A stretch of DNA of 64,000 nucleotides from Thermoleophilia bacterium (GTDB lineage: Bacteria; Actinomycetota; Thermoleophilia; UBA2241). Under the pieces are notes generated by a model that was given only the letters and a program-made list of their open reading frames with translations, was not told the DNA's origin and ran no database searches. The stretch covers positions 593,419 to 657,418 of the forward strand of contig JAXGZO010000001.1 in assembly GCA_040776965.1 (NCBI GenBank), written 5' to 3'. The number at the start of each line of letters is the position of its first letter. The first letter of the stretch is position 1. A program made the translations under genes and the position numbers. This document shows positions 3,799-64,000 of this stretch, piece by piece.

Positions 3799-3833
3799 AC
3801 CGCGTACGCGCGGGCGCGCGGCCCCGTCTTTCC

Positions 3834-7233: not shown

Positions 7234-8379
7234 TTAGAGGTCGGCGAAGTGCTCCGGGGTGCCCTCGTAGGCGACCACGTTATTTTTGCCACTCCGCTTA
7301 GCCTTGTACATCATCTCGTCGGCGATCTTTACGAGAGCGTCAACGCCCATGTGGGCGGGGGCATTAACAAAGCCCACGCTGCAGGTGAGGGTGCCGATAG
7401 TTGCGAAGGTGTGGGCCTCCACCTCTGAGCGCACGCGCTCCGCAATCGTTGCTATCGTGGTGCTCGGTGTATCGGGCATGAGCAGGAGAAACTCCTCTCC
7501 GCCCCAGCGAATGATGCCGTCGTCCATCCTGAGGCACTCGCGCAGGAGGGCTGCGAACTCTATGAGCGTCTCGTCGCCGACCTCGTGGCCGTAGGTGTCG
7601 TTGATGGTTTTAAAGTTGTCGATGTCGAACAGGATGGCGGCTATCATGTGCTTCGCTTTATTGTTCTCCGTGAGCTCTTTGACCCTGTAGGAATACCAGG
7701 TACGGTTATTGAGTCCGGTGAGCTTGTCGGTGACAGACATGCGCTCAAGTTCCTTTTGCTGCACGTATTTTTCGCGCTTCGATATATTGCTTGTGCGTTT
7801 AAACCAGGATAAAAATACTATTGCAAGAACGAGATAAGATACAGACTGTACGTAGTCGATCTTGTCTTTACTGTGAAGTGTAAAGAAGCTTGCTGCTATA
7901 AATGCGAGTGCAGCGAGCGTATTCATGATGGAGAATCGAGTCCACTGTATGTGGAATACAGAGGTGAATATCATCATGAGCATTATTGCCGATACCTGAT
8001 ATGGATAGTCCTGATAATCAAGAGCTATAATCATATAGGAATAAGTCAGCATTATTGTGAGCAATGCGATCACTATACATATATCAAGCAATGTATAGCT
8101 ATTGACACGCTTAATGACCCTGCTGATGATTACACAAACAAGAAGATCAACGGTTCGCGCCGCGATAGAATGAGCTATATCTTGCGGTGGCGCCTCGTAG
8201 TCGAGCAGGAAGAAAACTAAAAATATAAGCCCGGCATAAAGGATGAGTCGCGCAGTTCTCGCTTTAGTCTCGAGTACGAGGGAGTCGCCGTATGCGCGCT
8301 CGAGCTCGGTGTCGTTAAACTTGCCCCAGGCGTTGATGTAGTCGGGGCGCCTTCTGAAGATCGAGTTGCCGAGTATCAT
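7234..8379 (-). CDS. Membrane-anchored diguanylate cyclase (multi-TM N-terminal domain plus GGDEF domain with GGEEF active site)
   Basis: Carries RxGGEEF, an I-site-like RxxD, DxLTGLxNR and KxAKRSGKN. The N-terminal half is polytopic membrane. ATG at 8379. Confidence 0.85.
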   Translation of the reverse strand: MILGNSIFRRRPDYINAWGKFNDTELERAYGDSLVLETKARTARLILYAGLIFLVFFLLDYEAPPQDIAHSIAARTVDLLVCVIISRVIKRVNSYTLLDICIVIALLTIMLTYSYMIIALDYQDYPYQVSAIMLMMIFTSVFHIQWTRFSIMNTLAALAFIAASFFTLHSKDKIDYVQSVSYLVLAIVFLSWFKRTSNISKREKYVQQKELERMSVTDKLTGLNNRTWYSYRVKELTENNKAKHMIAAILFDIDNFKTINDTYGHEVGDETLIEFAALLRECLRMDDGIIRWGGEEFLLLMPDTPSTTIATIAERVRSEVEAHTFATIGTLTCSVGFVNAPAHMGVDALVKIADEMMYKAKRSGKNNVVAYEGTPEHFADL

Positions 8380-12278: not shown

Positions 12279-13961
12279 GTGGAGAGAAACGAGAGCAGGG
12301 TGCAGGAGGCAACGGGTCTCGGTAAGAGACTTCCGGAGATCTACAAGTTCTTCCCGCAGGGCGCCGACAGCGGGGTTGCTCTTCACATCGGCTACTGTCG
12401 CGGGCGGGGCGAAGTCACTTGGGAGGACTCGATCCTCGCGTTTCCCGGTATCGAGACCACCGTCTTTGAGTACTCGCCGCTCGGCGGCCTCTCGTTTCTC
12501 CTCGAGAGCGGCGAATGCTTGCTCTACAACGGTGCGTTTGAGCGCATCGAGGAGCTCCCGGACGATCCCGGGGAGAACGTCATCATCGCCTTCACGCAGA
12601 AGGACATCGTCGTCTTCTTTAAAGAGACGCACATCGGCGAGATTACGGTATGCACGCTCATCGACATCTCCTCTCGGCTCAAATACCTCGAGGCGATTAT
12701 CGCCGAGAACGAGCAAGATAGGCTGACGGGGCTCTTTAACAGGGCATCCTTCCTCAAGCGGTGCCGCAAGCTCCTCCTCGGCGGCGGCTTCGGCGCGATG
12801 GCCTACATCGACCTCGACAACCTGAAGAACCTCAACGATGCGTGGGGGCACGATACCGGCGATCGCTACTTGGTCGCCCTCGCCGACTGGCTTCAGAGCT
12901 TCTTTGAGGAGATGCCGCGGGAGCGTAGGGTCTTTAGCCGCCTCTCGGGCGACGAGTTCGCGGTCTTCGTGGGCGGGTTTGAGAGCGAAGCCGAGAGGGA
13001 TGCTTGCGTCAACGGGTTCAACGAGACTCCCCCCTTCGCGTTGCCGGACGGTAAAGAGGGGAAGCTCTCCTTCTCCACCGGCGTGGCGAGGTACCCGGAG
13101 GACTCCACCGGTATCGACGACCTCCTCGTCTACTCCGACTTCGCCATGTCGCTCGTGAAGCGCAACGACAAGGGGTCGATTCGCTTCTTCGAGCGCCGCG
13201 AGCACGACACGTTCTGGAGCCTCTCCAAGGGCTTGGCGGATCTCGACCAGATCATTCGGGAGCGCGATATCTTCTTTAATTACATCCCGTACGTCTCGAG
13301 CGATTCGGGCGCGCCCGCGATCTTCGATCTCTTCCCGGTGAGCTCGCTCGAGAGCCTCGAGAACATCGAGCGCATCGCCCTCATCGGCAAGCACAGCCAT
13401 CGCCTCGGCGAGCTCGACCACCTCGTCTACGAGCTGATCGTGGAGGAGCTCACCCTGCTGGCCGACCTTAAGTTCGACCAAGTGGTCGCCCTCGGCTACA
13501 TGCCGCAGGACCTCCTCTACCACGGTAAGCTCGAGGAGCTGTTGTGGCGCTCCAACTTCCCCTCGCAGCGCCTCTGTCTCGTCTTCGACTCGGAGATGCG
13601 CAGCTACTACGACTACATGCGGACCATCGACGGCATTAACCAACTCGGCATGCTCTTCGGCTTCCGCAACTACACGCCGAAGACCTCCGCCGTTGCCTTC
13701 GAGTTCTCGCCCCACATCGTGCGCCTCAGTGAGGAGTTCGTGCGGGACTGCAGCGCCAATGTGGAAATGCAGGAGGAGATCCGCACGCTTAAATCCCAGG
13801 CCAAGGCCTCGGGGTTCAGTATCGTCGCCGGGCACATTTCTTCGGCTGCCGATTTCGAGTTCTTGAAGGGCTTAGGTATCGACCTGCTTGGTGGGCCAGC
13901 CGTCTTCGGCGATGTGAGCAGGGGCGAGATCGAGTCCATCGCGCGCACTACGCTCTTTTAG
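12279..13961 (+). CDS. Signalling protein: N-terminal unknown domain, GGDEF domain (SGDEF variant) and degenerate EAL-like C-terminal domain
   Basis: DRLTGLFNR and RLSGDEFAVF lie in the GGDEF core. The C-terminal region has EAL-like blocks (FRNYTPKTS ~ DDFGTGYSS; IVAGHISSAADFEFLKGLGIDLLGG ~ AEGVET...GQG) but lacks the E-A-L and catalytic residues. Confidence 0.8.
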   Translation: MERNESRVQEATGLGKRLPEIYKFFPQGADSGVALHIGYCRGRGEVTWEDSILAFPGIETTVFEYSPLGGLSFLLESGECLLYNGAFERIEELPDDPGENVIIAFTQKDIVVFFKETHIGEITVCTLIDISSRLKYLEAIIAENEQDRLTGLFNRASFLKRCRKLLLGGGFGAMAYIDLDNLKNLNDAWGHDTGDRYLVALADWLQSFFEEMPRERRVFSRLSGDEFAVFVGGFESEAERDACVNGFNETPPFALPDGKEGKLSFSTGVARYPEDSTGIDDLLVYSDFAMSLVKRNDKGSIRFFERREHDTFWSLSKGLADLDQIIRERDIFFNYIPYVSSDSGAPAIFDLFPVSSLESLENIERIALIGKHSHRLGELDHLVYELIVEELTLLADLKFDQVVALGYMPQDLLYHGKLEELLWRSNFPSQRLCLVFDSEMRSYYDYMRTIDGINQLGMLFGFRNYTPKTSAVAFEFSPHIVRLSEEFVRDCSANVEMQEEIRTLKSQAKASGFSIVAGHISSAADFEFLKGLGIDLLGGPAVFGDVSRGEIESIARTTLF

Positions 13962-16076: not shown

Positions 16077-16106
16077 AAGCGGGTGCGTACACCTAAGGAG
16101 GACAGC

Positions 16107-16562: not shown

Positions 16563-16644
16563 CGGAAGCGCACGGACGCTACGAAGCAGGTCGGCGGGGG
16601 GGGCGGGGCGCCGCCCGCCGGACCAGGAGACTACAGGCAGGGTC

Positions 16645-44322: not shown

Positions 44323-44335
44323 GGCTCTCCCGGGG

Positions 44336-44596: not shown

Positions 44597-44617
44597 GGTC
44601 GTTCCTCTCGTGGGTGA

Positions 44618-46021: not shown

Positions 46022-46035
46022 ATGACTCCTTCGCT

Positions 46036-46074
46036 GGGAGGAGGCGACCCCGTGTGGAGAGGTCGCCTCCTCCC
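46036..46074 (-). promoter_or_regulatory. Very stable 14-bp perfect stem-loop (GGGAGGAGGCGACC-N11-GGTCGCCTCCTCCC) between hydA and hydG, with a second 7-bp hairpin at 46082-46098
   Basis: Inverted repeats read from the sequence. No U-tract follows in transcript orientation. The hydG RBS lies immediately 3' of it. Confidence 0.45.
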
Positions 46075-46112
46075 TTCAGTGAACAGGCTCCGCCTGTTGT
46101 ACCCCGAGTCGC

Positions 46113-47885: not shown

Positions 47886-47902
47886 CCTTCAGCACTCCTT
47901 GA

Positions 47903-51883: not shown

Positions 51884-51933
51884 TCGCTCTTCCTCCCTGT
51901 CGTCTGCTGGGGCCGCTTGCGGGGATCGGTGTG

Positions 51934-52428
51934 TTAGGGCAGCGCTTGCTGGTAGGCGACGAGTGCCGGGAGCTTGGCGGGCAGCTCGCTGCTACGCAGG
52001 CTCGTCAGCTCGTCGTCGTTGCGGAGTGAGATGCGGAACTCCACCTCGGGGTGAGTGGCCACCACGACGAGAAGGCTGGTGGCCACATCGCCGAGCGGTG
52101 GACGGTCGACGTTGTTAAGGCTCATATGGACGCGCACGGATGCACCGCCGAGCTCCTCGGAGCGGCCGAGTGCGAGTCCGCCACCGCTCGCCTCGGCCGC
52201 TTGTCGAAAGAGGCTGAGGCCGAGGCCGGTTTTTTTGGTCGGTTTCGTCGTGAAGAAGGGGTTGAGGGCCTCGCTGGGCTGCACCGGAAGGCCCGGCCCG
52301 TTGTCGTCGATAGCCATAGTGAGGCTGTCGCTGGCGTGATCGGCCGCGATGTCGACGGCGATGATCGTCGCTCCGGCGCGGAGCGAGTTCTCGAGAATAT
52401 CGAGGAGGTAGAGCGAGAGATCATGCAT
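51934..52428 (-). CDS. Stand-alone histidine-kinase-like ATPase (HATPase_c) protein
   Basis: N-box/G-box-like DDNGPGLP and GLGLS motifs. No HisKA/DHp domain or phospho-acceptor His region. Confidence 0.75.
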   Translation of the reverse strand: MHDLSLYLLDILENSLRAGATIIAVDIAADHASDSLTMAIDDNGPGLPVQPSEALNPFFTTKPTKKTGLGLSLFRQAAEASGGGLALGRSEELGGASVRVHMSLNNVDRPPLGDVATSLLVVVATHPEVEFRISLRNDDELTSLRSSELPAKLPALVAYQQALP

Positions 52429-53161
52429 CGTCGACGCTCCTGCCGTGCTCGCCGCGCAGTGCGGCGGCGAGCTCCGTGAACGACGGATTGGCCACGTGCA
52501 GGGTGGTGCGTACGGCGCCGATATCGCTGAGGTAATGAGCGTCTGATGAGTGCAGGATCGGCAGGCCGTGGATGCGGAACTCCTCCTCGGCGGGGGAGCC
52601 GGGCGCGATGTGGCGGGAGAGCTCTACGGCGTCGAAGCCCGCGTCTGTTGGGAAGAAGCCGAGCTGGCCGATGGCGCCGAACGTTTTGCGGTCGATATGC
52701 GCGGCGACCGCGAGGCCGCTGTGACGGTGGATGAGCGCTGCCGTGTCGTTGATGTCGAGGAGGGTGGCCATCGCGAGGGCCTTCTCCTCTGTGGCGAGGA
52801 GCTCGCCGGCGGCGCTGAGGACCGACTGGGTGCCGAAGAACGCCTCGTAGCCGTCGTCGACGGGCGGTAGCGACGCCCCCGCCTCCGCGGCCGCCGCCTC
52901 CGCCGCCTCCGCGGTGGGGAAGAGGCCGACGACGTGGCACTCCTCGGCCGAGGTGATCTCCATGCCGGCGAGCACGACGAGGTAGTCGCCGGCCGCCTCT
53001 TGCACGGCAGCGACGTTGCGCGCACTGTTGTGGTCGCAGATCGCGATCATCCCGAGGCCTTCAGCCAGCGCTCGCTCGACGATAGCCGCCGGGGTCATAC
53101 TCTCGTCCGCGCAGGGTGAGAGCGCCGTGTGAATATGGAGATCGGCGAAACAGTGGTTCAC
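52421..53161 (-). CDS. PHP-domain protein (hydrogenase-operon associated)
   Basis: Motifs DLHIHTALSPC, ICDHN and HSSDAHY. Confidence 0.8.
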   Translation of the reverse strand: MNHCFADLHIHTALSPCADESMTPAAIVERALAEGLGMIAICDHNSARNVAAVQEAAGDYLVVLAGMEITSAEECHVVGLFPTAEAAEAAAAEAGASLPPVDDGYEAFFGTQSVLSAAGELLATEEKALAMATLLDINDTAALIHRHSGLAVAAHIDRKTFGAIGQLGFFPTDAGFDAVELSRHIAPGSPAEEEFRIHGLPILHSSDAHYLSDIGAVRTTLHVANPSFTELAAALRGEHGRSVDDA

Positions 53162-53508
53162 ACATGGCTTCCTTTGACGCCGAGTTCGTAGAGGCGGCCG
53201 ACGGTGGTGAACGTATCGCAGGGTGAGATGTAGAGCTTAATACCTACGGAGCGCGCCTTAGCGACGACGTCGTCTTCCGGCTGGCGGCCGCTCGCGAAGA
53301 CGACGGCCGCGAGGTTGGCGTGGCTGGCCACCGCGATCACGTTGAGGTGCACCTGCAAGGTGACGAGGACGCCACCCTTGGGGCCGTGGGCGAGGACGTC
53401 GCTTAAGAGGTCGGAGGCGTAACCCTGCGTGATCTCGGCGTCGCCGCCGGCGAGCTCCGGGGTGAGCTCCGTGAGGGTCAGTTCGTTGGCGAGGTACTCG
53501 AGATTCAT
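53158..53508 (-). CDS. DRTGG-domain protein
   Basis: 116-aa protein in a hydrogenase operon context, consistent with the DRTGG family. The assignment is by pattern only. Confidence 0.6.
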   Translation of the reverse strand: MNLEYLANELTLTELTPELAGGDAEITQGYASDLLSDVLAHGPKGGVLVTLQVHLNVIAVASHANLAAVVFASGRQPEDDVVAKARSVGIKLYISPCDTFTTVGRLYELGVKGSHV

Positions 53509-54266
53509 AGGGGGATCTCCTTTAGGGGACGCTCCAGCGCCGAGCAGACCTCATAGTTCTCGCAGAGATCGAGTGCGTTGAGGGACTCGAGTGCGACGGC
53601 GTTCTCTCCGTCGTCGTCGACGTGGGAGAAGAAGACGGCGGACTCGAGCGCGGCGATGATATCGATGTACTCGACGAAGATGTCGTCGGGAAGGTGGAGG
53701 GGGATGGGCGAGAAACTCACGATGCTCTTAATGCCGGCGCCGACGAGCGCCTCTGCGGCGCTCTGCGCCGCCGATGCCGGAAGCGCTAGGACCGCTGTCT
53801 CAATGCCCGAGTCGTGCACGACCTCCTCGAGCGCGGAGGTGTGGAAGCAGGGGCAGCCGTGGAGAGAGGAGCCGACAACCGCCGGGTTGGTGTCGAAGGC
53901 GGCGGTGATAGACGCGGAGGAGAGCGTCGTTGAGGCGTGTGCGAGGATAGCCCGCCCGAGGTTGCCGACGCCGACCAACGCGATACGGTGCTGCTGCTCG
54001 TCGTCGAGGAACGCGCTCATGCTCGTGATGCACGCGGCGACGCCGTACCCCTTGCTGGGGCTGCCCGAATACCCGATAACCATGAGGTCGCGACGGACCT
54101 GAGCCGCGCTCACCGCCGCGTGCCGCGCGAGCTCGTGGGAGTAAACATGGGCGGTGCCTTCCTCGCGGAGGGCGAGCAAGATGCGGCGGTAGCGACTTAT
54201 GCGAGAAACAGTCTTTCTGGATACCACCGCAGCTCCTGAATCGGCGAGGGGATCGCAAGAGAGCAC
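53505..54266 (-). CDS. rex: Redox-sensing transcriptional repressor Rex (start possibly at an internal GTG giving VVSRKTVSRISRY...)
   Basis: Winged-helix N-terminus (SRYRRILLAL) and NADH-binding Rossmann (IALVGVGNLGRAI). Confidence 0.85.
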   Translation of the reverse strand: MLSCDPLADSGAAVVSRKTVSRISRYRRILLALREEGTAHVYSHELARHAAVSAAQVRRDLMVIGYSGSPSKGYGVAACITSMSAFLDDEQQHRIALVGVGNLGRAILAHASTTLSSASITAAFDTNPAVVGSSLHGCPCFHTSALEEVVHDSGIETAVLALPASAAQSAAEALVGAGIKSIVSFSPIPLHLPDDIFVEYIDIIAALESAVFFSHVDDDGENAVALESLNALDLCENYEVCSALERPLKEIPL

Positions 54267-54270
54267 ACGC

Positions 54271-54286
54271 TGTGAAATTCATCACG
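54271..54286 (+). promoter_or_regulatory. Candidate Rex operator half-palindrome TGTGAAATTCATCACG just upstream of rex
   Basis: Matches 10 of 12 defined positions of TGTGAA-N4-TTCACA. Confidence 0.3.
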
Positions 54287-54349
54287 ATTATCGCTGTCGC
54301 GCTCTCGTGGTGTCAAATGCGGGCGTTGCCTTTTCGAGCGGTACAATGA

Positions 54350-55771
<1,422 letters not shown>

Positions 55772-55800
55772 CCCGCCTCGGGGCGTGCTACACTCGGCCG

Positions 55801-56232
55801 ATGGATACCGCAGCTCTCCAGAGCGCTCGCTTCTCCACGTACCTTCGTGTGCGGTACGCCGAGACCGACACGGCCGGTGTTGTCTATTACGCCAACTACC
55901 TCACGTACTTCGAGGTCGCCCGCGTCGAGCTGCTCCGGGCGCTCGGGCGGCCCATCACGGCCATCGAGCAGGAGGGGATCCTGCTCCCGGTGGTGGAGGC
56001 GCGCGCTCAGTACCTTCGGCCCGCGCGCCTCGACGACCAGCTCGAGGTCTCGCTAGCCCTCGCCTCCCTCGGCCGGGCATCCTTCGCCTTCGACTACGAG
56101 ATCCGTCGCGACGAGCTCCTTTTAACGACGGGCTGGACGCGGCTCGCCGCCTGCGCGCGCACCACGGGCCGCGCCGTGCCCCTGCCGCCATGGCTACGCG
56201 AGCTCTTGGCCGGATTCGGGGGTCTCGCGTGA
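55801..56232 (+). CDS. Acyl-CoA thioesterase (YbgC/4HBT hotdog family)
   Basis: Hotdog-fold pattern (VRYAETDTAGVVYYANYLTYFEVAR). Confidence 0.85.
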   Translation: MDTAALQSARFSTYLRVRYAETDTAGVVYYANYLTYFEVARVELLRALGRPITAIEQEGILLPVVEARAQYLRPARLDDQLEVSLALASLGRASFAFDYEIRRDELLLTTGWTRLAACARTTGRAVPLPPWLRELLAGFGGLA

Positions 56233-57173
56233 CCGAGCCCCTGAATCCGAACTCCTCCACCCAGTCTTGCTATCGGCACCCCGGTCGCGCTACCGGGGTC
56301 TCCTGCGTGCGCTGCGGGCGCCCCATCTGCCACGAGTGCATGGTGCCGGCTCACGTGGGCTTTTGGTGCCCTGACTGCGTGGGGCAGCAGCGGTCGTCGA
56401 CCACGGGCTCGGGGGCGCGGCGGACTCGCGTCTTCACGCGTCAGGAGATCACCGCTCGGTGGGCGGGGGGCGGCTCGCTGCGTCGCCCGCTGATCACGCT
56501 CATCCTCCTCGGCATCAACGTCGCCGTCTTCGTGCTCGAGCTCCTCACCGGCGCCGTCGGGCTCCTGGGCGGGGGCTCCAGTCGTATGCTCTACAACCTC
56601 GGTGCTCTGTACTTGCCGAGTGTGCTGATCGACCATGAGTACTGGCGCATGTTCACGGCGGCGTTTCTCCACGGGGGCCTGCTCCATCTCCTCTTCAATA
56701 TGTGGGCGCTCTGGGTGCTCGGCGAGTACCTGGAGGCGGCCGTGGGGCGCGTTCGCTTTCTCGCGCTCTACTTACTCTCTGCGTTCGCGGGCTCTACGCT
56801 GGTGTTGTTCGCGGCGCCGGTTAATTCGCTCGTAGTGGGGGCGTCTGGTGCTATCTTCGGCCTCTTCGGTGCACTTGCCGTTCACGCCTACCTCAATCGC
56901 AACCGCGACCCGCAGTCGCGCGCCATCCTCACGAACGTCGCGTTTGTGCTGGTCATCAACCTTGTCTTCACCTTCATGGGCAGCATGATCTCCTGGCAGG
57001 CGCACGTCGGCGGGCTTATCGCCGGCGCTGTGCTCATGTACGCCCTCATGCTCGGCGGTCGTCGCCACCTGCGCGACGAGCTGGGTAGAGCCGACCTCGT
57101 GGTTCTCCTCTTCGCAGCTATCAGCCTCTCTGCGCTGACCTATTGGCATGTTGCCACTTTTGCGCTGCAGTAG
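56229..57173 (+). CDS. Rhomboid-family intramembrane serine protease with N-terminal zinc-ribbon
   Basis: GTG at 56229 overlaps the thioesterase stop. Has CxxC...CxxC at the N-terminus, the catalytic GASGAIFG and a downstream His (AHV), and the WRxxT/HxxxxHLxxN rhomboid motifs. Confidence 0.85.
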   Translation: MTEPLNPNSSTQSCYRHPGRATGVSCVRCGRPICHECMVPAHVGFWCPDCVGQQRSSTTGSGARRTRVFTRQEITARWAGGGSLRRPLITLILLGINVAVFVLELLTGAVGLLGGGSSRMLYNLGALYLPSVLIDHEYWRMFTAAFLHGGLLHLLFNMWALWVLGEYLEAAVGRVRFLALYLLSAFAGSTLVLFAAPVNSLVVGASGAIFGLFGALAVHAYLNRNRDPQSRAILTNVAFVLVINLVFTFMGSMISWQAHVGGLIAGAVLMYALMLGGRRHLRDELGRADLVVLLFAAISLSALTYWHVATFALQ

Positions 57174-57345
57174 GTATCGGGTCGCTTTCGGGTTCCTTCT
57201 CCCTCTCCGCTGGGTACTCTCCGCTTTGTTGGCTCGTATCTCTCCCGTCTCCTCGCTTGCTGCGCCTCCTTCTGCGCGACTCGGGGAGTTCTCGCAGCTC
57301 CAAGTTATGCTTCCTTAAGGGACTATCTTCTGTGAGAGGTAACAG

Positions 57346-58632
57346 ATGAAAGTAAATATGGAAAAAAATACCATTAGAAAATACCATCGAATTGAATTAC
57401 CAGCAAAAGTAAGAATAAATGAAAAATGGCATAATGTAAAAGATTGGTCTCTTGGTGGATTCATGGTAATGGATGTCACCGATGTTTTTGAAAAAGAGAT
57501 AAATTATGACGTAAAGCTTCTATTGCCATTTGATAGCGTAGAGATAGTAGTAGATGTTACAGCTAAAGTAGCTTGGTCGAGAAATGACAGAGCTGGGTTT
57601 TCTTTTGTAAACCTTAGCTCGAAAGCTAAGAATATACTAAAGACTTATCTAAAGGATAGCATAGAGGGAAATCTAGGTGAAATAGACGGTGTTTTAGCGT
57701 ATGTAGATGCACAAGAAATACCACTCCCTATAGAAACTCCAATGACCTCTAATGAAGAGATAGATTTTCAGAGGTCGTTCTATAAAAGAAGCATTCGCTA
57801 CATTATTATAGCATTGGCAGTAGTTGCAATTGCACTAATTATTGTGTTCTCAACTATGACAAGAGCGACAAGTTTAAGGGCAGTAGTATCATCAGCAAAA
57901 GTCAACGTAGATGCTCCATTTGATGGAATGGTAACAAATATATATGTTAAAAGTGGAGACTCTGTAAAAAAGAATCAAATTTTAGCCATATTAGATAATG
58001 GTGATATAAAGAGAAGCGTGGAAACACAGCGATATGCGGTTTTAGCTTCAGAGAAAGAGCTACATGAAGCAAAAGCATTACTAAGAATGGCTAAAAATGG
58101 TAAGTATGTATACAGTAAATATTCTGCAAGCGCAAGTTTATCAATTCTTAATTCAGAAGTTGGAGTTAAGGCTCAGAAGCTCAATGAGGAAAAATCTAGA
58201 TTACGAGAGCTTCTCAGTGAGCTCGACAAGGCAAATCTACGGAGTCCTTGTGATGGCTTTGTTTATGTCTGTAAGCCCTCTATAGGATCAAGCGTTCGCA
58301 AATACGATCAATTCTTTATACTCCAGCCTAACGAAAATGCAAATATGTACATACTTGCTCGATTTACATTTGACGCAGCTAAGGGTATTTCACCTGGAAG
58401 TACAGCAGATGTATTTATTCCATCGCTGGGTAAAAGAGTAAAGGGAACGGTTCGATCTATGGGAACCCAGGCACTTGGTGGCGCAGAGGGATCTCTTGAT
58501 TTAGAGATAAGCACACAAGAGGTTCCAGTTGCTATTGTATTGAATGACAATAGTTTGAATTTGAAAAGTGGTATCTCAGCAATAGTAGATGTAAGAACTC
58601 CAATTAAAGCAAGGTTAAAGCGCATACTGTGA
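57346..58632 (+). CDS. PilZ domain - TM - HlyD-like membrane-fusion-protein fusion (Alg44-like c-di-GMP-binding co-polymerase architecture)
   Basis: PilZ motifs R(K)xxxR (IRKYHR) and D/NxSxGG (DWSLGG). Single TM. Biotin-lipoyl-like MFP hairpins (DAPFDGMVTNIYVKSGDSV; SPCDGFVYV). Coding sequence is ~35% GC. Confidence 0.8.
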   Translation: MKVNMEKNTIRKYHRIELPAKVRINEKWHNVKDWSLGGFMVMDVTDVFEKEINYDVKLLLPFDSVEIVVDVTAKVAWSRNDRAGFSFVNLSSKAKNILKTYLKDSIEGNLGEIDGVLAYVDAQEIPLPIETPMTSNEEIDFQRSFYKRSIRYIIIALAVVAIALIIVFSTMTRATSLRAVVSSAKVNVDAPFDGMVTNIYVKSGDSVKKNQILAILDNGDIKRSVETQRYAVLASEKELHEAKALLRMAKNGKYVYSKYSASASLSILNSEVGVKAQKLNEEKSRLRELLSELDKANLRSPCDGFVYVCKPSIGSSVRKYDQFFILQPNENANMYILARFTFDAAKGISPGSTADVFIPSLGKRVKGTVRSMGTQALGGAEGSLDLEISTQEVPVAIVLNDNSLNLKSGISAIVDVRTPIKARLKRIL

Positions 58633-61352
58633 GAAAAGTTTACTGCGAATCAACTCCTAGAATATTAACGACAAAAGACGCCGTTCTAAAGTCTCTTAGA
58701 GTTACTATTCTTTATATAGCTGTTATTGCCATCTTTCTCTCTCTTATACCAGAGGAAGCTTGGTATATAAAAGGGCATAGTGGGTTGATCGTTATAGGTG
58801 TGTTCGGAATATGGCGATACTCATGGCAAGTTATTCATATTATCAGAATGCTCATTTACCGCATGAAGAGATTCCCTGTCATGCGAGAAGAGGCATGCAG
58901 GCTAGAGGATAAATATCCAAAAAGACTCTATTTCGTTATTCCATCATACTTTGAGATGCCTGAGATAGTTTTAAAGGTATTCAAATCAATTATGGATGAG
59001 TGCTCTTCTTTGCCATGCGAAATGATTTCAATAATCATGAGTGTTGGATCGCAAGAAGAAGTAAATCATATAAATAAATTTGCAATAGAGAACTACGATC
59101 TAAGAAATGTGAAAATCACGTTCATGATCCAAAAATCAGGCAAGAGAATTGCAATGGGTCATGCTCTAAGGGCTGTATCAAGGGATTTCAATAGAGTATC
59201 TCAATGGGATGAGAGCAACAAAGATGATCTAGTTGTAATGATGGATGGTGATGCAGTATTAGTGAGTGGAATACTTGAGAAAACTCTACCATTATTTAAA
59301 ATAAAACCAAATCTTGGCGTTGTTACTCCAAATAACATAGCGCTCTCAATACATCCCGATAGCATATTTCAAATCTGGTATCAGCTGAAATTTATGCAGA
59401 GAAATCATACATTTCAGTCACATAGTTTGTCGAAGAGAATTCTGACAACTACCGGAAGATTTTGTGTTTATCGTGCCCCAATTGTCGTTGATAATGAGTT
59501 TATTAAGTTCGTTGAAACAGACCATATCGATCATTGGATATTCGGGCGATTCAGGTTCCTTATGGGCGATGATAAAAGTACATGGTTTTATTGCCTAAAA
59601 GAGGGATATGAAATGCTCTATATCCCTGATGCTCATGTGCTATCAATTGAAGAGCGATCTAAGGGATTTTTTAAAACATCCATATCTCTTATGAAGAGAT
59701 GGTATGGTAATACATTAAGAAATAATAAAAGAGCAATTATGCTCGGTCCAAAAAAGATGGGATTTTTTATATGGTGGTGTCTAGTTGATCAAAGATTGAC
59801 AACATGGACACCACTTGTTGGTCTTGTAAGCTCGATAATGTTATCGATATTTATTTCTCCATATTATTTTATGTTCTATATGATTTGGGTTTTGATAACA
59901 AGACTTTTGATGTCATGGGTTTATGTTCTGCAAGGAATGCGTCTGAGGGTAGAACATATTATTATTATGATATATGTACAATGGGTTGGCTCAATTGTAA
60001 AGCTAATAACAATGTATAATTTAAAAAAGCAGTCATGGGATAAGGGAGAAAGTAGTGATTCAATTTATGAAGAATTACACGGTATCTTTCCTGTTTTCCA
60101 AAAATCCATTAGACATATGATGGTTGGGTTGAATATATTTATACTATTTATCTTTTGTGGACTATCGACGCACGCTCTTTCCGTTCCGCCACTGGCATTT
60201 TTTAAGGATTTTTTCACAATACAAGCAGCGGAGAGGCCGTCTTCTAGGGTGATAAATGCTGCTGAATTCGGAGCAGTAGGGAATGATTCAGTAGCTGACG
60301 ATGTGGCAATAAATAAAGCCATAAGATCGGTAAGCAGCGATGCGCAAACTACACTACAGTTGCCATCTGGAAGGCTTATACTTAATGCTCCAATACGTGT
60401 AAATAAAAGTAATATAACTATCGCCGGCGATAAAAATTCATCCACGATACTAGACTCTCATTTCTCCATAAAAGAAGGATCATCAGCAATAGTAGTTAGC
60501 GGAGATAAAGGTGCTAGTATCGGAAGTCTATCTGTCGACGCGAAAAAAAATGACGAAGTACTCCTGATAGATCCTCGATATAAATCTGAGAGTACATATA
60601 AAAATGCAGAGTATATATGGATCGGAACTCCAAATACAAAAGAATTTCTCGATAAAATAGGATCAAAAGAGTGGAATAGAGAATATCCGTGGCTTCGACA
60701 GACGATCGTTCAATCATATAGCATAAGCAAGGATGCTATTAAAATACTTAAACCGCTATCTTTTGACATGCCAGAAAAAGCAGAAATTTACGCTCCAAAT
60801 ATTATTAGAGGAATTACTATTAAGGATTTATCATTAACGCAAGCTGTTCCGAATATGAAAACTCAGCAAGCGAAGTCACAGTACAGAGATCTTGCATCAA
60901 AATATGCAGTTAACGGAATAAGCTTTGAGTGGGCTGCTCATTCAGCTGTTGAGAATGTTACTATTGACTACGCAGGGAGAAATCCAATATCGCTGGAGAA
61001 TTCGTACTCTGTAAATATGAAGAATCTCCACATCGATGGATCGTGGAATAAGGGAAAAGACGGTAACGGGTACGTGAGGTTTTCTCGTTCTTATTACTGC
61101 TCGATAGCTGATAGTGAGATAAAGGATATAAGACACCTGGTATTTCAGTGGAGCTCTTCTCATAATACCGTTGAGCATTGCAAGATATACGTCGATGTCA
61201 ATTTCCACGGCGGATTCAGCCACGATAACCTCGTTACCGGATGCACTATCAGCCCGCCGGACTCTCATCCCTGGGGTAGGGTCACTCGGATGAAGAAGGG
61301 CGGGTCGCACTGGGCCCCGGCGGACGGTGAGGGCAACGTGGTGAGGCGGTAG
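58629..61352 (+). CDS. Membrane GT2-family polysaccharide synthase fused to a C-terminal right-handed beta-helix (polysaccharide lyase/epimerase-like) domain
   Basis: GT2 core (DxD-like DGD, QRLTTW resembling QxxRW) flanked by TM helices. The C-terminal ~380 aa shows beta-helix repeat character (NxTIxG, VxNxTI). GTG overlaps the upstream stop. The gene is low-GC except for the last ~150 nt. Confidence 0.75.
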   Translation: MRKVYCESTPRILTTKDAVLKSLRVTILYIAVIAIFLSLIPEEAWYIKGHSGLIVIGVFGIWRYSWQVIHIIRMLIYRMKRFPVMREEACRLEDKYPKRLYFVIPSYFEMPEIVLKVFKSIMDECSSLPCEMISIIMSVGSQEEVNHINKFAIENYDLRNVKITFMIQKSGKRIAMGHALRAVSRDFNRVSQWDESNKDDLVVMMDGDAVLVSGILEKTLPLFKIKPNLGVVTPNNIALSIHPDSIFQIWYQLKFMQRNHTFQSHSLSKRILTTTGRFCVYRAPIVVDNEFIKFVETDHIDHWIFGRFRFLMGDDKSTWFYCLKEGYEMLYIPDAHVLSIEERSKGFFKTSISLMKRWYGNTLRNNKRAIMLGPKKMGFFIWWCLVDQRLTTWTPLVGLVSSIMLSIFISPYYFMFYMIWVLITRLLMSWVYVLQGMRLRVEHIIIMIYVQWVGSIVKLITMYNLKKQSWDKGESSDSIYEELHGIFPVFQKSIRHMMVGLNIFILFIFCGLSTHALSVPPLAFFKDFFTIQAAERPSSRVINAAEFGAVGNDSVADDVAINKAIRSVSSDAQTTLQLPSGRLILNAPIRVNKSNITIAGDKNSSTILDSHFSIKEGSSAIVVSGDKGASIGSLSVDAKKNDEVLLIDPRYKSESTYKNAEYIWIGTPNTKEFLDKIGSKEWNREYPWLRQTIVQSYSISKDAIKILKPLSFDMPEKAEIYAPNIIRGITIKDLSLTQAVPNMKTQQAKSQYRDLASKYAVNGISFEWAAHSAVENVTIDYAGRNPISLENSYSVNMKNLHIDGSWNKGKDGNGYVRFSRSYYCSIADSEIKDIRHLVFQWSSSHNTVEHCKIYVDVNFHGGFSHDNLVTGCTISPPDSHPWGRVTRMKKGGSHWAPADGEGNVVRR

Positions 61353-61369
61353 CTGGTTCGGAGGGCGAT

Positions 61370-62200
61370 ATGCAGGAGCTGCGCGAGGGTGTTTGGTTGC
61401 ACGGCGCCGTGGCCGATGGGTTTCCGACGGTCGCCGCCCTCGTCTTTACGGCGACCCACGCCTTCGTGATCGACACGCTGTGCTCGCCCGGCGACATGGC
61501 GCCGGTGTGCGAGCACATCGCCCGCTTCGGTGCGAGGAGGCGAACGCTCGTGATCAATACTCATCATCACTGGGATCACGTGTACGGCAACGCGGCCTTT
61601 CCCTCCGCCGTTCTCTTCGCACACGAGTCGTGTCCCGGGCTCCTTCGCTCTCATCTCCTTGAGGAGGATGTGCCGCCTCCGCCGCCCGAGGGCGTGCCGA
61701 TCCCCAGCGCGACCTTCAGAGATCGCGTCACCTGCGGCGATGCGGAGGATCCCCTGCAGCTACTGCACGCTCCGGGCCACACGCAGGACTCACTCGTCGC
61801 CCTGTTGCCCTCCACCGGCGTCCTCTTCGGCGGCGACGCGGTGGAGTGGCCGCTGCCGAGCTTTGAGCAGCGCGGCGGCGTGAGGGCCTGGCTGCGGACG
61901 CTCCGTGCGCTCAAGCGTCTCGACTTCTCGCTCATCGTCCCGAGCCACGGGCCTCCCATGGACCGCTCTCTGCTGCGGGCAAACGAGCGCTATATCGTCG
62001 AGACCTCCGAGGCGGTTGAGCGGGAGTGGCGCCGGGGGAGGGGGAGGAGGGAGCTCGACCTGCCGGCGGAACGCTTTCTCGCTCCGGGGGTCGAGGTCGA
62101 CGCCCTTTATCGGGCGGCCCACGAGGCGAACCTTCGGTGGCTATGGGAGGAGTGCGAGCTGGGCTTCTTCGACCCGAACGGCATGCGGCAAAAAGAGTAG
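61370..62200 (+). CDS. MBL-fold metallo-hydrolase
   Basis: THHHWDH and downstream His/Asp motifs. Confidence 0.85.
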   Translation: MQELREGVWLHGAVADGFPTVAALVFTATHAFVIDTLCSPGDMAPVCEHIARFGARRRTLVINTHHHWDHVYGNAAFPSAVLFAHESCPGLLRSHLLEEDVPPPPPEGVPIPSATFRDRVTCGDAEDPLQLLHAPGHTQDSLVALLPSTGVLFGGDAVEWPLPSFEQRGGVRAWLRTLRALKRLDFSLIVPSHGPPMDRSLLRANERYIVETSEAVEREWRRGRGRRELDLPAERFLAPGVEVDALYRAAHEANLRWLWEECELGFFDPNGMRQKE

Positions 62201-62251
62201 ACATTCCCCGTGAATATGTGTACAAAGGGGATCTAAGGAGGTGAGAGGTTC

Positions 62252-62482
62252 ATGACTGAACTCAAAGAGCAGGTCGAGCGGGCCCTCGGCGATATCCGCC
62301 CGGCTCTTCAGGCCGATGGCGGCGATATCGAGTTGATCGACGTAGTGGATGGCGTGGTTCAGGTTCGCCTGCAAGGGGCGTGTGCAGGGTGCCCCATGTC
62401 GCAGATCACCCTAACCGACGGCGTGGAGCGTCATCTTAAAAACGTCGTACCCGGCGTGGAGCGTGTGGAGAACTTCGCCTAA
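62252..62482 (+). CDS. NifU-like (Nfu C-terminal domain) Fe-S cluster assembly protein
   Basis: CxxC (CAGCPMS) in a NifU C-terminal fold. Strong RBS AAGGAGGTGAG. Confidence 0.85.
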   Translation: MTELKEQVERALGDIRPALQADGGDIELIDVVDGVVQVRLQGACAGCPMSQITLTDGVERHLKNVVPGVERVENFA

Positions 62483-62693
62483 GAGGGCGAGACATCGTTC
62501 GCGATAGTGCGGCCGGCCGGCGAGCCTCTCCGGGCTTCGCCGGCCGGTTTCGTTTTCCGGGGCAGTCGTCTTTACCGTTTGTTTATACGCCGCTCATCGG
62601 AGAGCGGTATACTTTCTCCACAGGAGAGGATGAGGCGAGCTCTTGGCGTACGCGTTGGTGCGCCGAGGGTCGTCTCTGGATAACGGGGGGGCA

Positions 62694-64000
62694 ATGACAG
62701 CGCCGGAAGAACACACAAGCAGTTCGGAGTGCGATCGAACGATCTCCCCCTCTGCGGAGGAGTTCCTCAGCAACATGCCTGTCGATCTCGACGATGACGA
62801 CCTTCGAGATCCAGACCTCTTTTTTAACCGCGAGCTGAGCACGCTCGAGTTCTTTCAGCGGGTGCTCGATGAGTCGTACGACCTCACCAACCCACTCCTG
62901 GAGCGTCTCAAGTACGTCGGCATCACCAGCTCCATTCTCGGCGAGTTCTTCATGGTGCGTATCGCCGGCCTGCGTCAGCAGGTCGAGGCCGGTGTCACCA
63001 GCGCCGCGGCAGATGGCTGGACGCCCCAAAAGCTTTTGCCGGCCGTCCGTATGCGCGCGTTCGAACTCATGGAGGCGGCGCGCACGCGGCTCTCGGAGCT
63101 CATGCCCGAGCTCAGGGAGGCGGGTATCCACATCGTAGAGTACGAGGAGCTCAACGCCGAGCAAAAGGCCGAGCTCGCGAAGTATTACGATGCCCAGATC
63201 TTCCCCGTGCTGACGCCCCTCGCCTTCGACCCAGGCCGCCCCTTCCCCCACATCTCGAATATGAGCCACAACCTGGCGGTGACGGTGCGCGACCGCGCGG
63301 GCGAAGACCACTTCGCGCGGGTCAAGATCCCCTCGGTGCTGCCGCGTCTCATTAAGGTGTCCTCCGCCAAAGAGGGGCAGTGGTTCGCCTGGCTCGAGCA
63401 GGTGATCGCGGCTAACCTCGGCACGTTGTTCCCCGGCATGGAGATTATCGAGTCGAGTCCGTTTCGCGTAACTCGCGACGCCGACCTTGAGATTCAAGAG
63501 CTCGAGGCCGACGACCTCCTCGAGACCATCGAGCAGTTCGTCCGCCGCCGCCGCTTTGGCTCGGTTATTCGCGTGACGATCGACGACACCATGCCCGAGC
63601 ACACGGCCGCCCTGCTTAAGGAGAACCTCGAGCTCGCGGACCACGACCTCTACGTGGTGAAGTCACCACTCGGGCTCAGCGATCTCGGCAGCCTGAGCTG
63701 GGTCGATGCCCCCGAGCACAAATACCCGCCGCTCGTTCAGGCGGTCGCGCCGTCCTTGCGCGGCGTAGAGGGCTCCGACATCTTCGCCGCCATTCGCCAG
63801 CGCGACGTGCTCATCCACCACCCCTACGAGACCTTCGACTCGGTGGTGGAGCTCATGAACGCCGCCGCGGAGGACCCCGACGTACTGGCCATTAAGACGA
63901 CGCTCTACCGGGTGGGTCGCAACGCCCCCATCGTCGACGCCCTCATGCAGGCGGCGGCGAACGGCAAGCAGGTCGCCGCGCTCGTGGAGCTCAAGGCCCG
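62694..64000 (+). CDS. ppk: Polyphosphate kinase 1 (5' part; continues beyond window)
   Basis: ATG at 62694 follows GGGGGGG. DPDLFFNRELSTLEFFQRVL is a hallmark PPK1 N-terminus. The ORF is not in the track because it has no in-window stop. Confidence 0.93.
   Translation, partial: MTAPEEHTSSSECDRTISPSAEEFLSNMPVDLDDDDLRDPDLFFNRELSTLEFFQRVLDESYDLTNPLLERLKYVGITSSILGEFFMVRIAGLRQQVEAGVTSAAADGWTPQKLLPAVRMRAFELMEAARTRLSELMPELREAGIHIVEYEELNAEQKAELAKYYDAQIFPVLTPLAFDPGRPFPHISNMSHNLAVTVRDRAGEDHFARVKIPSVLPRLIKVSSAKEGQWFAWLEQVIAANLGTLFPGMEIIESSPFRVTRDADLEIQELEADDLLETIEQFVRRRRFGSVIRVTIDDTMPEHTAALLKENLELADHDLYVVKSPLGLSDLGSLSWVDAPEHKYPPLVQAVAPSLRGVEGSDIFAAIRQRDVLIHHPYETFDSVVELMNAAAEDPDVLAIKTTLYRVGRNAPIVDALMQAAANGKQVAALVELKA

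Follow-up and report, generated by a model that had tools for sequence, protein, structure and literature searches.

A horizontally acquired gene pair for a putative c-di-GMP-gated, Alg44/Alg8-type exopolysaccharide synthase with a fused beta-helix in a Thermoleophilia-like actinobacterium

A 4-kb low-GC island of two genes, ORF1 and ORF2, was located in the high-GC genome of an uncultured Thermoleophilia-like actinobacterium, where genes for a rhomboid protease and an MBL-fold protein border it. It lies within a 64-kb stretch of DNA that was analysed as a whole (the window) (Table 1). The island is probably an acquired, self-contained Alg44/Alg8-type exopolysaccharide synthase cassette, in which a c-di-GMP-gated polyuronate synthase would carry a beta-helix domain that processes the nascent chain in a lyase-like manner. 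The GTG start of ORF2 overlapped the stop of ORF1 (GTGA), through which the two genes were translationally coupled. The public gene call for ORF2 (P0001, 823 aa) began 84 codons too late. A preliminary description of this DNA had read the pair as overlapping genes for an Alg44-like PilZ–TM–HlyD-type protein and a GT2 synthase, with the gene for the membrane-fusion protein (MFP) in first position and without flanking accessory genes, and these readings held. The HMM searches it had proposed matched PilZ, HlyD, GT2, and Pect-lyase_RHGA_epim, and Beta_helix weakly.

Table 1. Positions of the island features and of the c-di-GMP-related genes in the window
Feature	Position	Strand	Evidence
Upstream spacer with left composition junction	57174..57345	+	Sequence, 20-nt GC steps
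ORF1, Alg44-like c-di-GMP receptor/membrane-fusion protein, 428 aa	57346..58632	+	Pfam, NCBIfam, PDB profile matches
PilZ domain, residues 11–102	57376..57651	+	Pfam
Single TM helix of ORF1, residues ~150–172	57793..57861	+	Hydropathy core 156–168
Extracytoplasmic HlyD/EmrA-type membrane-fusion domain, residues 180–428	57883..58629	+	Domain and profile matches
ORF2, Alg8-like processive GT2 synthase with C-terminal beta-helix, 907 aa	58629..61352	+	Pfam, homology, model
Cytoplasmic GT2 catalytic domain, residues 98–361	58920..59711	+	
C-terminal membrane module of ORF2	59763..60167	+	DSSP of full-length model, hydropathy, positive-inside counts
Right-handed parallel beta-helix domain, residues 540–906 (~370 aa)	60246..61346	+	
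ORF2 3′ end, host-like codons, GC3 0.77	61179..61352	+	Change-point analysis, 60-nt slices
MASE8-GGDEF diguanylate cyclase, outside island	7234..8379	-	Pfam GGDEF 1.3e-40, MASE8
GGDEF-EAL protein, outside island	12279..13961	+	Pfam GGDEF 7.4e-22, EAL 2.1e-9

ORF1 is, judged from its sequence, built like Alg44, with a PilZ domain followed by one TM helix and then by an MFP domain. Alg44 is composed of a cytoplasmic PilZ domain, a TM helix, and a periplasmic MexA-like MFP domain, and c-di-GMP is required (PMC3815931). ORF1 shared this architecture with the Alg8–Alg44 system of Pseudomonas aeruginosa and Azotobacter. In Pfam, it matched PilZ (5.5e-8, above the gathering score), HlyD_3, HlyD_D23, and Biotin_lipoyl_2, and MFP subfamilies of NCBIfam were also matched. 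The PilZ motifs were R11-K-Y-H-R15 (RxxxR) and D33-W-S-L-G-G38 (DxSxxG); among 65 partner proteins, R11, R15, W34, S35, and G38 each showed ≥90% conservation. Against the PDB, the ORF1 family profile matched EmrA and HlyD-type MFPs (down to 1.5e-31) and the Alg44 PilZ structures 4xrn, 4rt0, and 4rt1 (E = 1e-10). The PilZ domain as a single sequence did not reach Alg44 in the PDB, and ORF1 matched the Alg44-position protein of a Loktanella operon at an E value of 0.005 only. The alpha-hairpin of the MFP domain was shortened, with ~55 residues of most homologues absent after residues 233–258.

By sequence homology, ORF2 is assigned as an Alg8-type GT2 synthase. Its Pfam matches were Glyco_tranf_2_3 (1.5e-26), Pect-lyase_RHGA_epim (2.3e-8), and a weak Beta_helix. 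Residues 27–512 were co-linear with a GT along its entire length, with 32% identity and an E value of 1e-84; this GT belongs to an alginate-like operon (dehydrogenase, GT, nucleotidyltransferase, beta-helix, and MBOAT). The DxD, TGR, GDDK, and RW(Y/F)GN motifs were shared with Alg8-type GTs. In ORF2, these were D206-G-D208 (59244–59252), T273-x-T-G-R277, G313-D-D-K316, and S-L-M-K-R357-W358 (residues 353–358, at 59685–59702), in which the invariant R357-W358, within SLMKRWYGN, aligned with RW(Y/F)GN. The RW motif was SLMKRW and not QRLTTW (residues 388–393), which had previously been taken as the QxxRW equivalent. The predicted fold of the synthase half appeared HAS/BcsA-like, and hyaluronan synthases were its best matches. 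Sequence similarity of ORF2 to class I hyaluronan synthases and BcsA was not detectable, and the GT family profile found no GT2 synthases in the PDB by sequence.

The C-terminal membrane module consisted of helices 379–408, 412–433, and 441–462, a beta-hairpin (residues 468–479), and a last TM helix (residues 487–513), and the Alg8-type GT terminated directly after the equivalent of this last helix. Helix 441–462 is probably an interface helix. BcsA has its PilZ domain in cis and a cytoplasmic C-terminus. Past the third interface helix, ORF2 apparently has one TM helix fewer, which would place its C-terminal domain outside. An outward-facing beta-helix also appears from the positively charged loop 437–491 ahead of the last TM helix, with the N-terminus of ORF2 inside, from the signal or lipoprotein peptides on stand-alone beta-helix homologues, and from the Alg8-type GT that ends at the same TM helix. 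This placement depends on reading helix 441–462 as an interface helix; if it were membrane-spanning, the beta-helix would be cytoplasmic.

The sugar polymerized by ORF2 would most probably be a uronic acid, supplied as GDP-ManA or UDP-GlcA. The link to uronates is suggested by dehydrogenase, alginate-lyase, and uxaC genes near relatives and by the listed groove residues of the beta-helix, of which one is acidic. In the nearest relative, the next downstream gene encoded a UDP-glucose 6-dehydrogenase, which resembled this enzyme rather than AlgD. In one Sulfurimonas locus (L058), the annotation placed a PL7 alginate-lyase gene downstream of the gene for the GT; the blastp cluster of this lyase gene covered 5 loci. 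A Vibrio locus with a stand-alone beta-helix homologue also contained uxaC and genes for an alginate lyase and a KdgM porin. Among the window ORFs that were scanned, none encoded a nucleotide-sugar dehydrogenase. A product other than a polyuronate, such as a hyaluronan-like or beta-glucan-like neutral or amino-sugar glycan, seems unlikely. The fold matches to hyaluronan synthases, the type of dehydrogenase in the nearest relative, and the absence of precursor genes beside the island would fit such a glycan. However, the synthase half resembled Alg8-type GTs and not HAS or BcsA by sequence, alginate-lyase and uronate genes adjoin relatives, and a uronate-containing polymer would be expected even from a UDP-GlcA supply.

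The beta-helix domain was predicted at a pLDDT of 96.5. It formed a small family of its own (584 representatives at E<=1e-3), with the signature DG(S/A)WNKGxGGNGY...RHLxxQW...DxNFHGG...HxW, which in ORF2 corresponded to W806-N-K808-G...G-N-G-Y815, R835-H836...Q840-W841, D856-x-N858-x-H860-G-G, and H880-x-W882. Among the listed groove residues, Asp856 was the sole acidic one, beside Lys808, Tyr815, Arg835, His836, Asn858, and His860. The closest folds were phage and capsule depolymerases and alginate epimerases/lyases. The identity to phage LKA1 gp49, Klebsiella K1 lyase, KP34p57, AlgE4, 8ja4, and RbmB was 12–19%, and no catalytic motifs were shared with beta-helix depolymerases, lyases, or epimerases. 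A non-catalytic role, in which the domain would hold the polymer at the cell surface by binding the polysaccharide as a guide or anchor, or by acting as an adhesin, is rather improbable: ~20 polar residues on successive rungs were invariant in fused and stand-alone members, a stacked pattern typical of an active-site groove, and one homologue lies in a uronate catabolic locus.

The fused, right-handed beta-helix of the preliminary description was confirmed at ~370 aa, whereas its AlgG-like identity was rejected. The DPHD motif of AlgG was absent from ORF2, as was DPH(D/E) from the family consensus, and hhalign against the AlgG-position beta-helix of the alginate-like operon gave a probability of 0.6%; the domain was unrelated to AlgG by sequence. 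A beta-helix fold is not known from AlgL or PelA. An AlgG/AlgE-type C5-epimerase, giving an untrimmed, alginate-like mixed M/G polymer, is accordingly quite doubtful, since its defining motif is missing and the longest structural alignments (295–305 residues) were with depolymerases, not epimerases.

The horizontal acquisition of the pair from a foreign, low-GC source was supported by its composition and by its genomic context. The GC content in sliding windows was 0.33–0.41 from about 57300 to about 61200, compared with 0.62–0.72 in the flanks. The island (57340–61229) had a GC content of 0.368 against 0.656 for the remainder of the window, and GC3 was 0.26 in ORF1 and 0.35 in ORF2 against 0.82–0.86 in five adjoining genes. 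The windowed GC and codon analysis thus bore out the abrupt drop proposed at 57340–61230, with the exception of its right boundary, which was placed at codon 850 of ORF2 and thus within the gene (nt ~61179; GC3 from 0.32 to 0.77; 2 × dLL = 45.8). The host-like 3′ end nevertheless encoded the conserved C-terminus of the family in the alignment with homologues, which makes the gene a mosaic. At the left junction, the sequence was GC-rich to ~57300 and AT-richer beyond. Elsewhere in the window, no 1-kb stretch had a GC content <0.48; the MASE8-GGDEF gene was a milder compositional outlier (GC 0.50, GC3 0.64). In syntenic host relatives, the interval between these rhomboid and MBL genes either was empty or held a gene for an M24 peptidase. 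As first described, no integrase or meaningful repeats flanked the island, and the nearest tRNA was 15 kb off.

That the island has no function in the host, as silent cargo or cargo in decay, is highly improbable. Its composition is unameliorated (GC 0.37), precursor genes are not nearby, and no sigma-70-like site was found in the upstream spacer, in which a Shine-Dalgarno-like GAGAGG lies 8 nt 5′ of the ORF1 ATG. ORF2 also carried a frameshift in one assembly (L175). This indel looks like an assembly error because L175 had several single-base deletions, some of them in the flanks, and the indel was absent from two other assemblies. Against decay, both ORFs were full length and kept every invariant family residue, and ORF1 compared with a 95.9%-identical copy (L174) gave a dN/dS of 0.109 at a dS of 0.14, which indicates purifying selection. 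Mis-assembly or contamination spliced to actinobacterial DNA, which the extreme composition step and the lack of mobility genes might suggest, is barely tenable, because both junctions recurred at 99.9–100% identity in contigs from three separate sequencing runs (SRR27558878, 100% to window 57013–63533; SRR27558879, 100% to 60799–63533; SRR27560945, 99.93% to 51599–62195) and the left junction (57281–57345) recurred in L174, which is 4% diverged, comes from an unrelated run, and differed there at 2 of 65 nt.

The fused architecture is widespread and no isolated case. Relatives of the pair were encoded in at least 579 representative genomes of many phyla, including Aquifex, Desulfovibrionales, Campylobacterota, and Gammaproteobacteria. 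In the scanned loci, the abutting upstream gene matched PilZ in 62 of 65 and HlyD in 63 of 65, and in each of the 24 relatives' loci checked, the cassette had the GC content of its flanks. The unusual feature of the island is therefore the transfer and not the design. A literature search found no study or description of the fused pair. When compared with the Alg8–Alg44 system of P. aeruginosa and Azotobacter, the island has the reversed gene order, lacks algD, K, E, G, X, L, I, J, F, and A, carries a fused domain absent from Alg8, and resides in an actinobacterium. In the rhizobial BgsB–BgsA system, c-di-GMP is sensed by the C-terminal region of BgsA itself and not by a PilZ domain on the MFP, a beta-helix is not known, the product is a neutral glucan, and TolC is required. 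BgsB–BgsA is described as a bicistronic mixed-linkage beta-glucan synthase that works with TolC, in which the MFP gene precedes the gene of the c-di-GMP-activated GT2 synthase and dedicated porin or TPR genes are absent (PMC13438883). The island is alike in its MFP-then-GT2 order, its two genes, and its lack of porin and TPR genes.

In the proposed mechanism, ORF1 would bind, through its cytoplasmic PilZ domain, c-di-GMP made by host GGDEF enzymes. The two GGDEF proteins noticed earlier in the window were both verified (Table 1); the MASE8-GGDEF protein is a possible source of c-di-GMP and the GGDEF-EAL protein a possible input to its turnover. ORF1 would pair with ORF2 and license polymerization as Alg44 does for Alg8, and the GT2 domain of ORF2 would processively polymerize a nucleotide-activated sugar, with the chain threaded across the membrane by a channel that ORF2 itself forms. 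The shortened MFP hairpin of this subfamily would be compatible with a host envelope that makes an outer-membrane conduit unnecessary. The beta-helix, joined to the last TM helix by a flexible linker and facing outward, may bind and process the chain that emerges alongside it, most likely by lyase-type cleavage controlling chain length or release. The characterised synthase-dependent systems are each known to include an enzyme that acts extracytoplasmically on the polymer of the system itself, by cleavage or modification. As the counterpart of such a dedicated hydrolase or lyase, the fused beta-helix would fill the role of AlgL, BcsZ, PelA, PgaB, and PssZ; whereas those are separate proteins of other folds, the function in ORF2 would be tethered to the synthase.

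The cassette was clearly distinguished from its GC-rich surroundings by composition. The sliding GC content was 0.33–0.41 across about 57300–61200 and 0.62–0.72 in the flanks on both sides, in agreement with the abrupt drop claimed in the preliminary description, and the island had a GC content of 0.368, compared with 0.656 in the remainder of the window. The GC3 values were 0.26 in ORF1 and 0.35 in ORF2, whereas five adjacent genes had values of 0.82–0.86. No further 1-kb stretch below 0.48 GC was found anywhere in the window. The island was composed of two ORFs, which shared 4 nt at the GTGA overlap described earlier.

Features of the cassette and of other genes in the window
Feature	Position	Evidence or remark
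ORF1	57346–58632	428 aa
ORF2	58629–61352	907 aa
PilZ domain	ORF1 residues 11–102	Pfam PF07238, 5.5e-8, 33.5 bits (cutoff 22.5)
PilZ motifs	ORF1 R11KYHR15, D33WSLGG38	RxxxR, (D/N)xSxxG
Single hydrophobic helix (TM)	ORF1 residues ~150–172	
HlyD/EmrA-type membrane-fusion domain	ORF1 residues 180–428	
GT2 domain	ORF2 residues 98–361	Pfam, 1.5e-26
Beta-helix N-cap match	ORF2 residues 542–618	Pfam, 2.3e-8
myo-Inositol-1-phosphate synthase gene, then GT4-PHP phosphoesterase fusion gene	2671–5729	Unusual fusion, 631 aa
MASE8-GGDEF diguanylate cyclase	7234–8379 (-)	GC 0.50, GC3 0.64
ORF matching Pfam NAD-GH	14082–16646 (-)	PF10712; antisense to DnaK gene
DnaK gene	14169–16076 (+)	
MFS transporter	21677–22915 (-)	GC 0.49, GC3 0.59 (genome GC3 ~0.85)
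Radical-SAM protein, HydF, second radical-SAM/BATS protein, [FeFe]-hydrogenase large subunit, NuoF-like/pyridine-nucleotide oxidoreductase fusion	41930–50956	First three possible hydrogenase maturases; fusion 1017 aa

A chimeric origin of the island was excluded by independently assembled contigs. Those of SRR27558878 and SRR27558879 were identical (100%) to window 57013–63533 and 60799–63533, respectively, and that of SRR27560945 matched window 51599–62195 at 99.93%. The last contig (L175, Logan assembly) had single-base deletions at the equivalents of window 53699, 60543, and 62086, one of which split ORF2 into 567-aa and 194-aa calls. A pseudogene was rejected as the explanation, because there were several such deletions, flanks included; the frameshift was probably an assembly error.

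The right limit of the low-GC tract was located at ~61179 inside ORF2 instead of ~61230. At this change-point, codon 850, the GC3 rose from 0.32 to 0.77 (2*dLL 45.8), and the final 20 codons reached 0.95. These GC-rich 3′ codons (61179–61352) nonetheless specified the conserved C-terminus of the family. The 3′ end is possibly recombinant, derived from an earlier or other high-GC allele, for example when a native copy was replaced. The tail of ORF2 had a mean identity of 52% with homologues, compared with 35% for the body, but this difference is uninformative, as conservation is highest in the tail anyway. When the tail was searched by blastn, low-GC relatives matched 61150–61244 and high-GC Desulfovibrionaceae matched 61194–61338, at only 70–75%. 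The observations neither favoured nor opposed replacement of such a native allele: the site was empty of the cassette in relatives with ~50% protein identity, and no host-contig paralogue was present among the best 120 of 755 ORF2 matches.

ORF1 contained an N-terminal PilZ domain, one TM helix, and a membrane-fusion protein (MFP) domain, as judged by Pfam, which matched both PilZ and HlyD, and by hydropathy; the Alg44 architecture proposed for gene 1 was thereby confirmed. Alg44 is composed of a cytoplasmic PilZ domain, a TM, and a periplasmic MexA-like domain (PMC3815931), and ORF1 shares its layout of PilZ, single TM, and extracytoplasmic MFP. When 65 partner proteins encoded in other genomes were aligned, residues Arg11, Arg15, Ser35, and Gly38 showed a conservation of 90% or more. 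The profile of this alignment matched the PilZ structures of P. aeruginosa Alg44 (PDB codes 4xrn, 4rt0, and 4rt1) at 1e-10 to 8e-10, the sole PilZ proteins among its best 60 matches, and also matched EmrA, type-I-secretion MFPs, HlyD, MacA, and MexA. ORF1 alone did not reach Alg44 in the PDB, and its match to the Alg44-position protein of the Loktanella plasmid operon had an E value of 0.005 over 57 aa. The MFPs of the ORF1 subgroup lacked ~55 residues in the α-hairpin. A promoter and terminator scan was uninformative, with 17 sites compared with 12.5±3.4 expected, and none of them was upstream of ORF1.

The Loktanella operon has an alginate-type layout, in the order nucleotide-sugar dehydrogenase, GT, hypothetical protein, nucleotidyltransferase, beta-helix protein, and MBOAT. 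Residues 27–512 of ORF2 aligned with the whole 489-aa GT of this operon without large gaps (32% identity, E 1e-84), and the DGD, TGR, GDDKSTWF, and RW(Y/F)GN motifs were common to both. This co-linearity and the GT2 match supported the assignment of gene 2 as a polytopic GT2 synthase. In the ORF2 family, the Alg8-type motif columns (DxD, TGR, GDDK, and (L/M)xxRW) were invariant and the flanking TMs were present; the JGI product names of several homologues were Alg8 or mannuronan synthase. The QRLTTW sequence, initially read as QxxRW, was another conserved stretch (residues 388–393), and the true counterpart was SLMKRW, whose invariant Arg357 and Trp358 are equivalent to QxxRW since they aligned with the Alg8-type RW(Y/F)GN. 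The predicted model of ORF2 was that of a processive, membrane-embedded synthase-translocase of the BcsA/HAS type: a GT-A domain packed against a TM channel, with the Q/LxxRW motif on one of its interface helices. The public 823-aa gene call for ORF2 (P0001) started 84 codons late and left out window 58629–58880, by which TM1, TM2, and the invariant W62-R63-x-x-W66 were lost.

Family-averaged hydropathy and charge placed the N-terminus and the GT domain of ORF2 inside. The loop preceding the last TM (residues 487–513), residues 437–491, was positive, with 6.9 Lys and Arg compared with 3.2 Asp and Glu. Helix 441–462 is presumably a third interface helix, by comparison with the HAS and BcsA structures; three crossings would then follow the GT domain and the beta-helix would be outside. 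The Alg8-type GT stops just past the equivalent of the last TM of ORF2, and the C-terminus of Alg8 is probably periplasmic. Because the Alg8-type GT ends at the same TM and stand-alone homologues of the beta-helix are secreted, the domain likely faces outward.

The predicted structure of the isolated C-terminal domain (residues 535–907; pLDDT 96.5, pTM 0.94) was a parallel beta-helix of the pectate-lyase-like superfamily, as anticipated for the fused C-terminus, and its best structural neighbours all had an identity of 12–19%. The AlgG-likeness suggested in the preliminary description did not hold. The catalytic motif that defines AlgG is DPH(D/E), DPHD in AlgG itself (PMC4436075), and DPH was missing from ORF2 and from the consensus of the beta-helix family. 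When the domain was compared with the AlgG-position beta-helix protein of the Loktanella operon by hhalign, the probability was 0.6%. An AlgG/AlgE mannuronan C5-epimerase was considered unlikely on these two grounds. Among the signature residues, placed on the groove by eye from strand positions, Asp856 was the only acidic one, beside conserved Lys, Arg, His, and Tyr. The groove of a GH28-type hydrolase bears three catalytic Asp; the lone Asp856 argued against this identity and would be compatible with lyase or epimerase chemistry.

In a search of 1.84 billion proteins, the beta-helix family had 584 representatives at E ≤ 1e-3 and 55 at E ≤ 1e-30, and on sequence grounds the domain forms a small family of its own. 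Its members were either fused to Alg8-like synthases or stand-alone proteins of 330–460 aa with an N-terminal signal or lipoprotein peptide (...LVAGC in Thermus). The stand-alone members kept the signature W806-N-K-G...G-N-G-Y815, R835-H...Q-W841, D856-x-N-x-H860-G-G, and H880-x-W. A secreted stand-alone homologue, a lipoprotein, was found on a Thermus thermophilus plasmid (locus L090, 6875–8017), adjoined by genes for a phytase-like esterase, CHAD, and Ppx/GppA. Another secreted homologue, annotated as GH55, was found on a Vibrio pelagius plasmid (locus L176, 5007–7001); it shared a locus of uronate-utilisation type with uxaC, two solute symporters, a gene of the alginate-lyase family, and a KdgM porin.

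The fused design was not a one-off but widespread in many phyla. Most of the 120 matches listed from the 755 homologues detected were 870–960 aa with 95–100% coverage of ORF2, and at least 579 stretches in species-representative genomes coded for relatives. These belonged to Desulfobacterota, Campylobacterota, Aquificota (including Aquifex aeolicus aq_1684), Gammaproteobacteria, Burkholderiales, Rhodothermales, an anammox planctomycete, Chloroflexota, and others. In nearly all loci with sufficient DNA, a gene of 455–520 aa abutted the synthase gene directly upstream, with PilZ and HlyD_3 matches in 62 and 63 of 65 loci, respectively; the adjacency of Alg44-type and Alg8-type genes in the window was thus the same as in 62–63 of these 65. 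Genes around the pair varied by lineage. The GC content of the cassette equalled that of its flanks in all 24 of the relatives' loci examined, and this match, together with the widespread conserved adjacency, indicated that the pair is an established, mostly native module elsewhere. A plasmid search gave separate halves only and the fused gene on none, and no description of the fused pair was found in the literature.

Gene context gave some hints as to the polymer. The nearest relative (60% identity) was followed by a UDP-glucose 6-dehydrogenase-like gene. In one Sulfurimonas locus (L058), the fused synthase gene was followed at a distance of ~0.8 kb by a PL7 (Alginate_lyase2) gene, at 9397–10317(+), whose blastp cluster comprised 5 loci in all. 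In the closest named relative, a Leptolinea MAG (L009:4814–7204), a 796-aa call covered just residues 5–782 of ORF2 with the contig running on, so that the final rungs of the beta-helix may be missing or out of frame. Several Campylobacterota had a BcsA-like GT2 (738–756 aa), itself ending in a PilZ domain, 2–3 kb downstream of the cassette (L075:4545–6815, L013:11403–13619, L018, L022, L036, and L052), preceded by a SPOR-domain gene, so that two c-di-GMP-dependent synthases would lie side by side.

A third gene family adjoined the cassette in 45 of 80 loci from other phyla (L021:8620–10149(-), L037:8627–9970(-), L013:8588–10468(-), L058:2909–4420(+), and 41 others), mostly convergent, tail-to-tail with the synthase gene. 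The product, of 400–650 aa, had a signal peptide, a coiled-coil-rich body, and frequently a SPOR-like N-terminus; searches of Pfam and of PDB sequences gave no match to the family. The hhalign probabilities for E. coli TolC and CusC were insignificant, at 0.7% and 2.2%, albeit with co-linear alignment, and a TolC-like product is hypothesised. The gene was missing from the Desulfovibrionaceae loci, the Aquificota loci, and the window, and no outer-membrane partner gene for tripartite MFP export was found in the window.

The DnaK of the window shared 86–89% identity with proteins from MAGs of Thermoleophilia and Actinomycetes, from which a Thermoleophilia-like host was inferred; the public contig was 1.66 Mb long. 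The NAD-GH ORF antisense to the DnaK gene is most likely a spurious shadow ORF. The [FeFe]-hydrogenase cluster indicates that the host is an anaerobic, hydrogen-metabolising actinobacterium. Both GGDEF proteins noted previously in the window were found again. The MASE8-GGDEF and MFS transporter genes were milder composition outliers and may be further acquisitions, one of the two making c-di-GMP.

The insertion site was compared in 24 metagenomic loci with an MBL-fold protein of 45–53% identity, all from one high-GC lineage (GC 0.68–0.73). Where the contig sufficed, the order was Rex, thioesterase, rhomboid, a gap, MBL, and NifU. The gap was ~250 nt in three relatives (L094, L106, and L109) and ~1.3 kb in nine, where the readable intact ORF encoded an M24 (creatinase/prolidase-type) peptidase with Creatinase_N and Peptidase_M24 domains. 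The cassette was present at this site in 0 of the 24 related loci (gap sites among L093–L112). Because it was absent from the gap in the relatives, the cassette must have been inserted at a variable site or have taken the place of the peptidase gene there, and this result and the deviant GC and GC3 substantiated the proposed horizontal origin. The closest tRNA was 15 kb from the island, no flanking direct repeats were outstanding, and no integrase gene lay beside it; as stated in the preliminary description, none of these accompanied the pair, and both flanks consisted of ordinary syntenic host genes.

Identities in the closest-relative subgroup, which included a 41%-GC contig and the Leptolinea (Chloroflexota) MAG, were 60, 53, 52, and 52% for ORF2 and 57, 51, and 45% for ORF1; the cassette was probably donated by one of its low-GC members. 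A diverged copy from SRR32022418 (L174) was 95.9% identical over 57281–58662 and equally AT-rich. It had the same left junction, so the island is older than the split between the two. Between the two ORF1 copies, dS was 0.144 and dN was 0.016, and the resulting dN/dS of 0.11 indicated that ORF1 is under purifying selection.

From the architecture, motifs, predicted folds, conservation, and selection observed, a scheme for ligand, substrate, product, and beta-helix chemistry may be proposed. Binding of c-di-GMP, possibly from host GGDEF enzymes such as the two coded in the window, to the PilZ domain of ORF1 would license the ORF2 synthase, which would polymerise and translocate a chain, probably uronate-containing. 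The tethered outward beta-helix would bind and process this chain, with lyase-type cleavage, to control its length or release, as the likeliest mode.

The original interpretation held in its essentials. The cassette is an uncharacterised variant of the Alg8/Alg44 synthase-dependent systems and a clean cross-phylum acquisition. Synthase-dependent polysaccharide secretion is known from a few large proteobacterial operons, those of alginate, cellulose, Pel, and PNAG; here the scheme is shrunk to two polypeptides, with polymerisation physically fused to an outward processing domain. More tentatively, and with somewhat less than even confidence, the cassette may represent an undescribed, widespread class of synthase-dependent EPS systems. 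This would be a minimal machine of two proteins: an Alg44-like c-di-GMP receptor/MFP would gate an Alg8-like synthase with a covalently attached extracytoplasmic processing enzyme, of a new beta-helix family (WNKGxGGNGY / RHLxxQW / DxNFHGG), and across many other lineages a dedicated partner with SPOR and coiled-coil regions would join the pair. Being so compact, the module would cross phyla, here into an actinobacterium, and be retained by selection.

If active, the cassette would be a tractable minimal model of how a PilZ-MFP passes c-di-GMP binding on to an Alg8-type synthase, a transmission that was still unclear for alginate in a 2013 review (PMC3815931). It would also provide a new uronate-active beta-helix enzyme family and a compact portable cassette for making polymer. 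PilZ-dependent polysaccharide synthases are no known feature of Thermoleophilia-like actinobacteria. The clean insertion is also a record of how a biofilm function under c-di-GMP control has passed between phyla, here to an anaerobic Thermoleophilia-like actinobacterium with a small genome.
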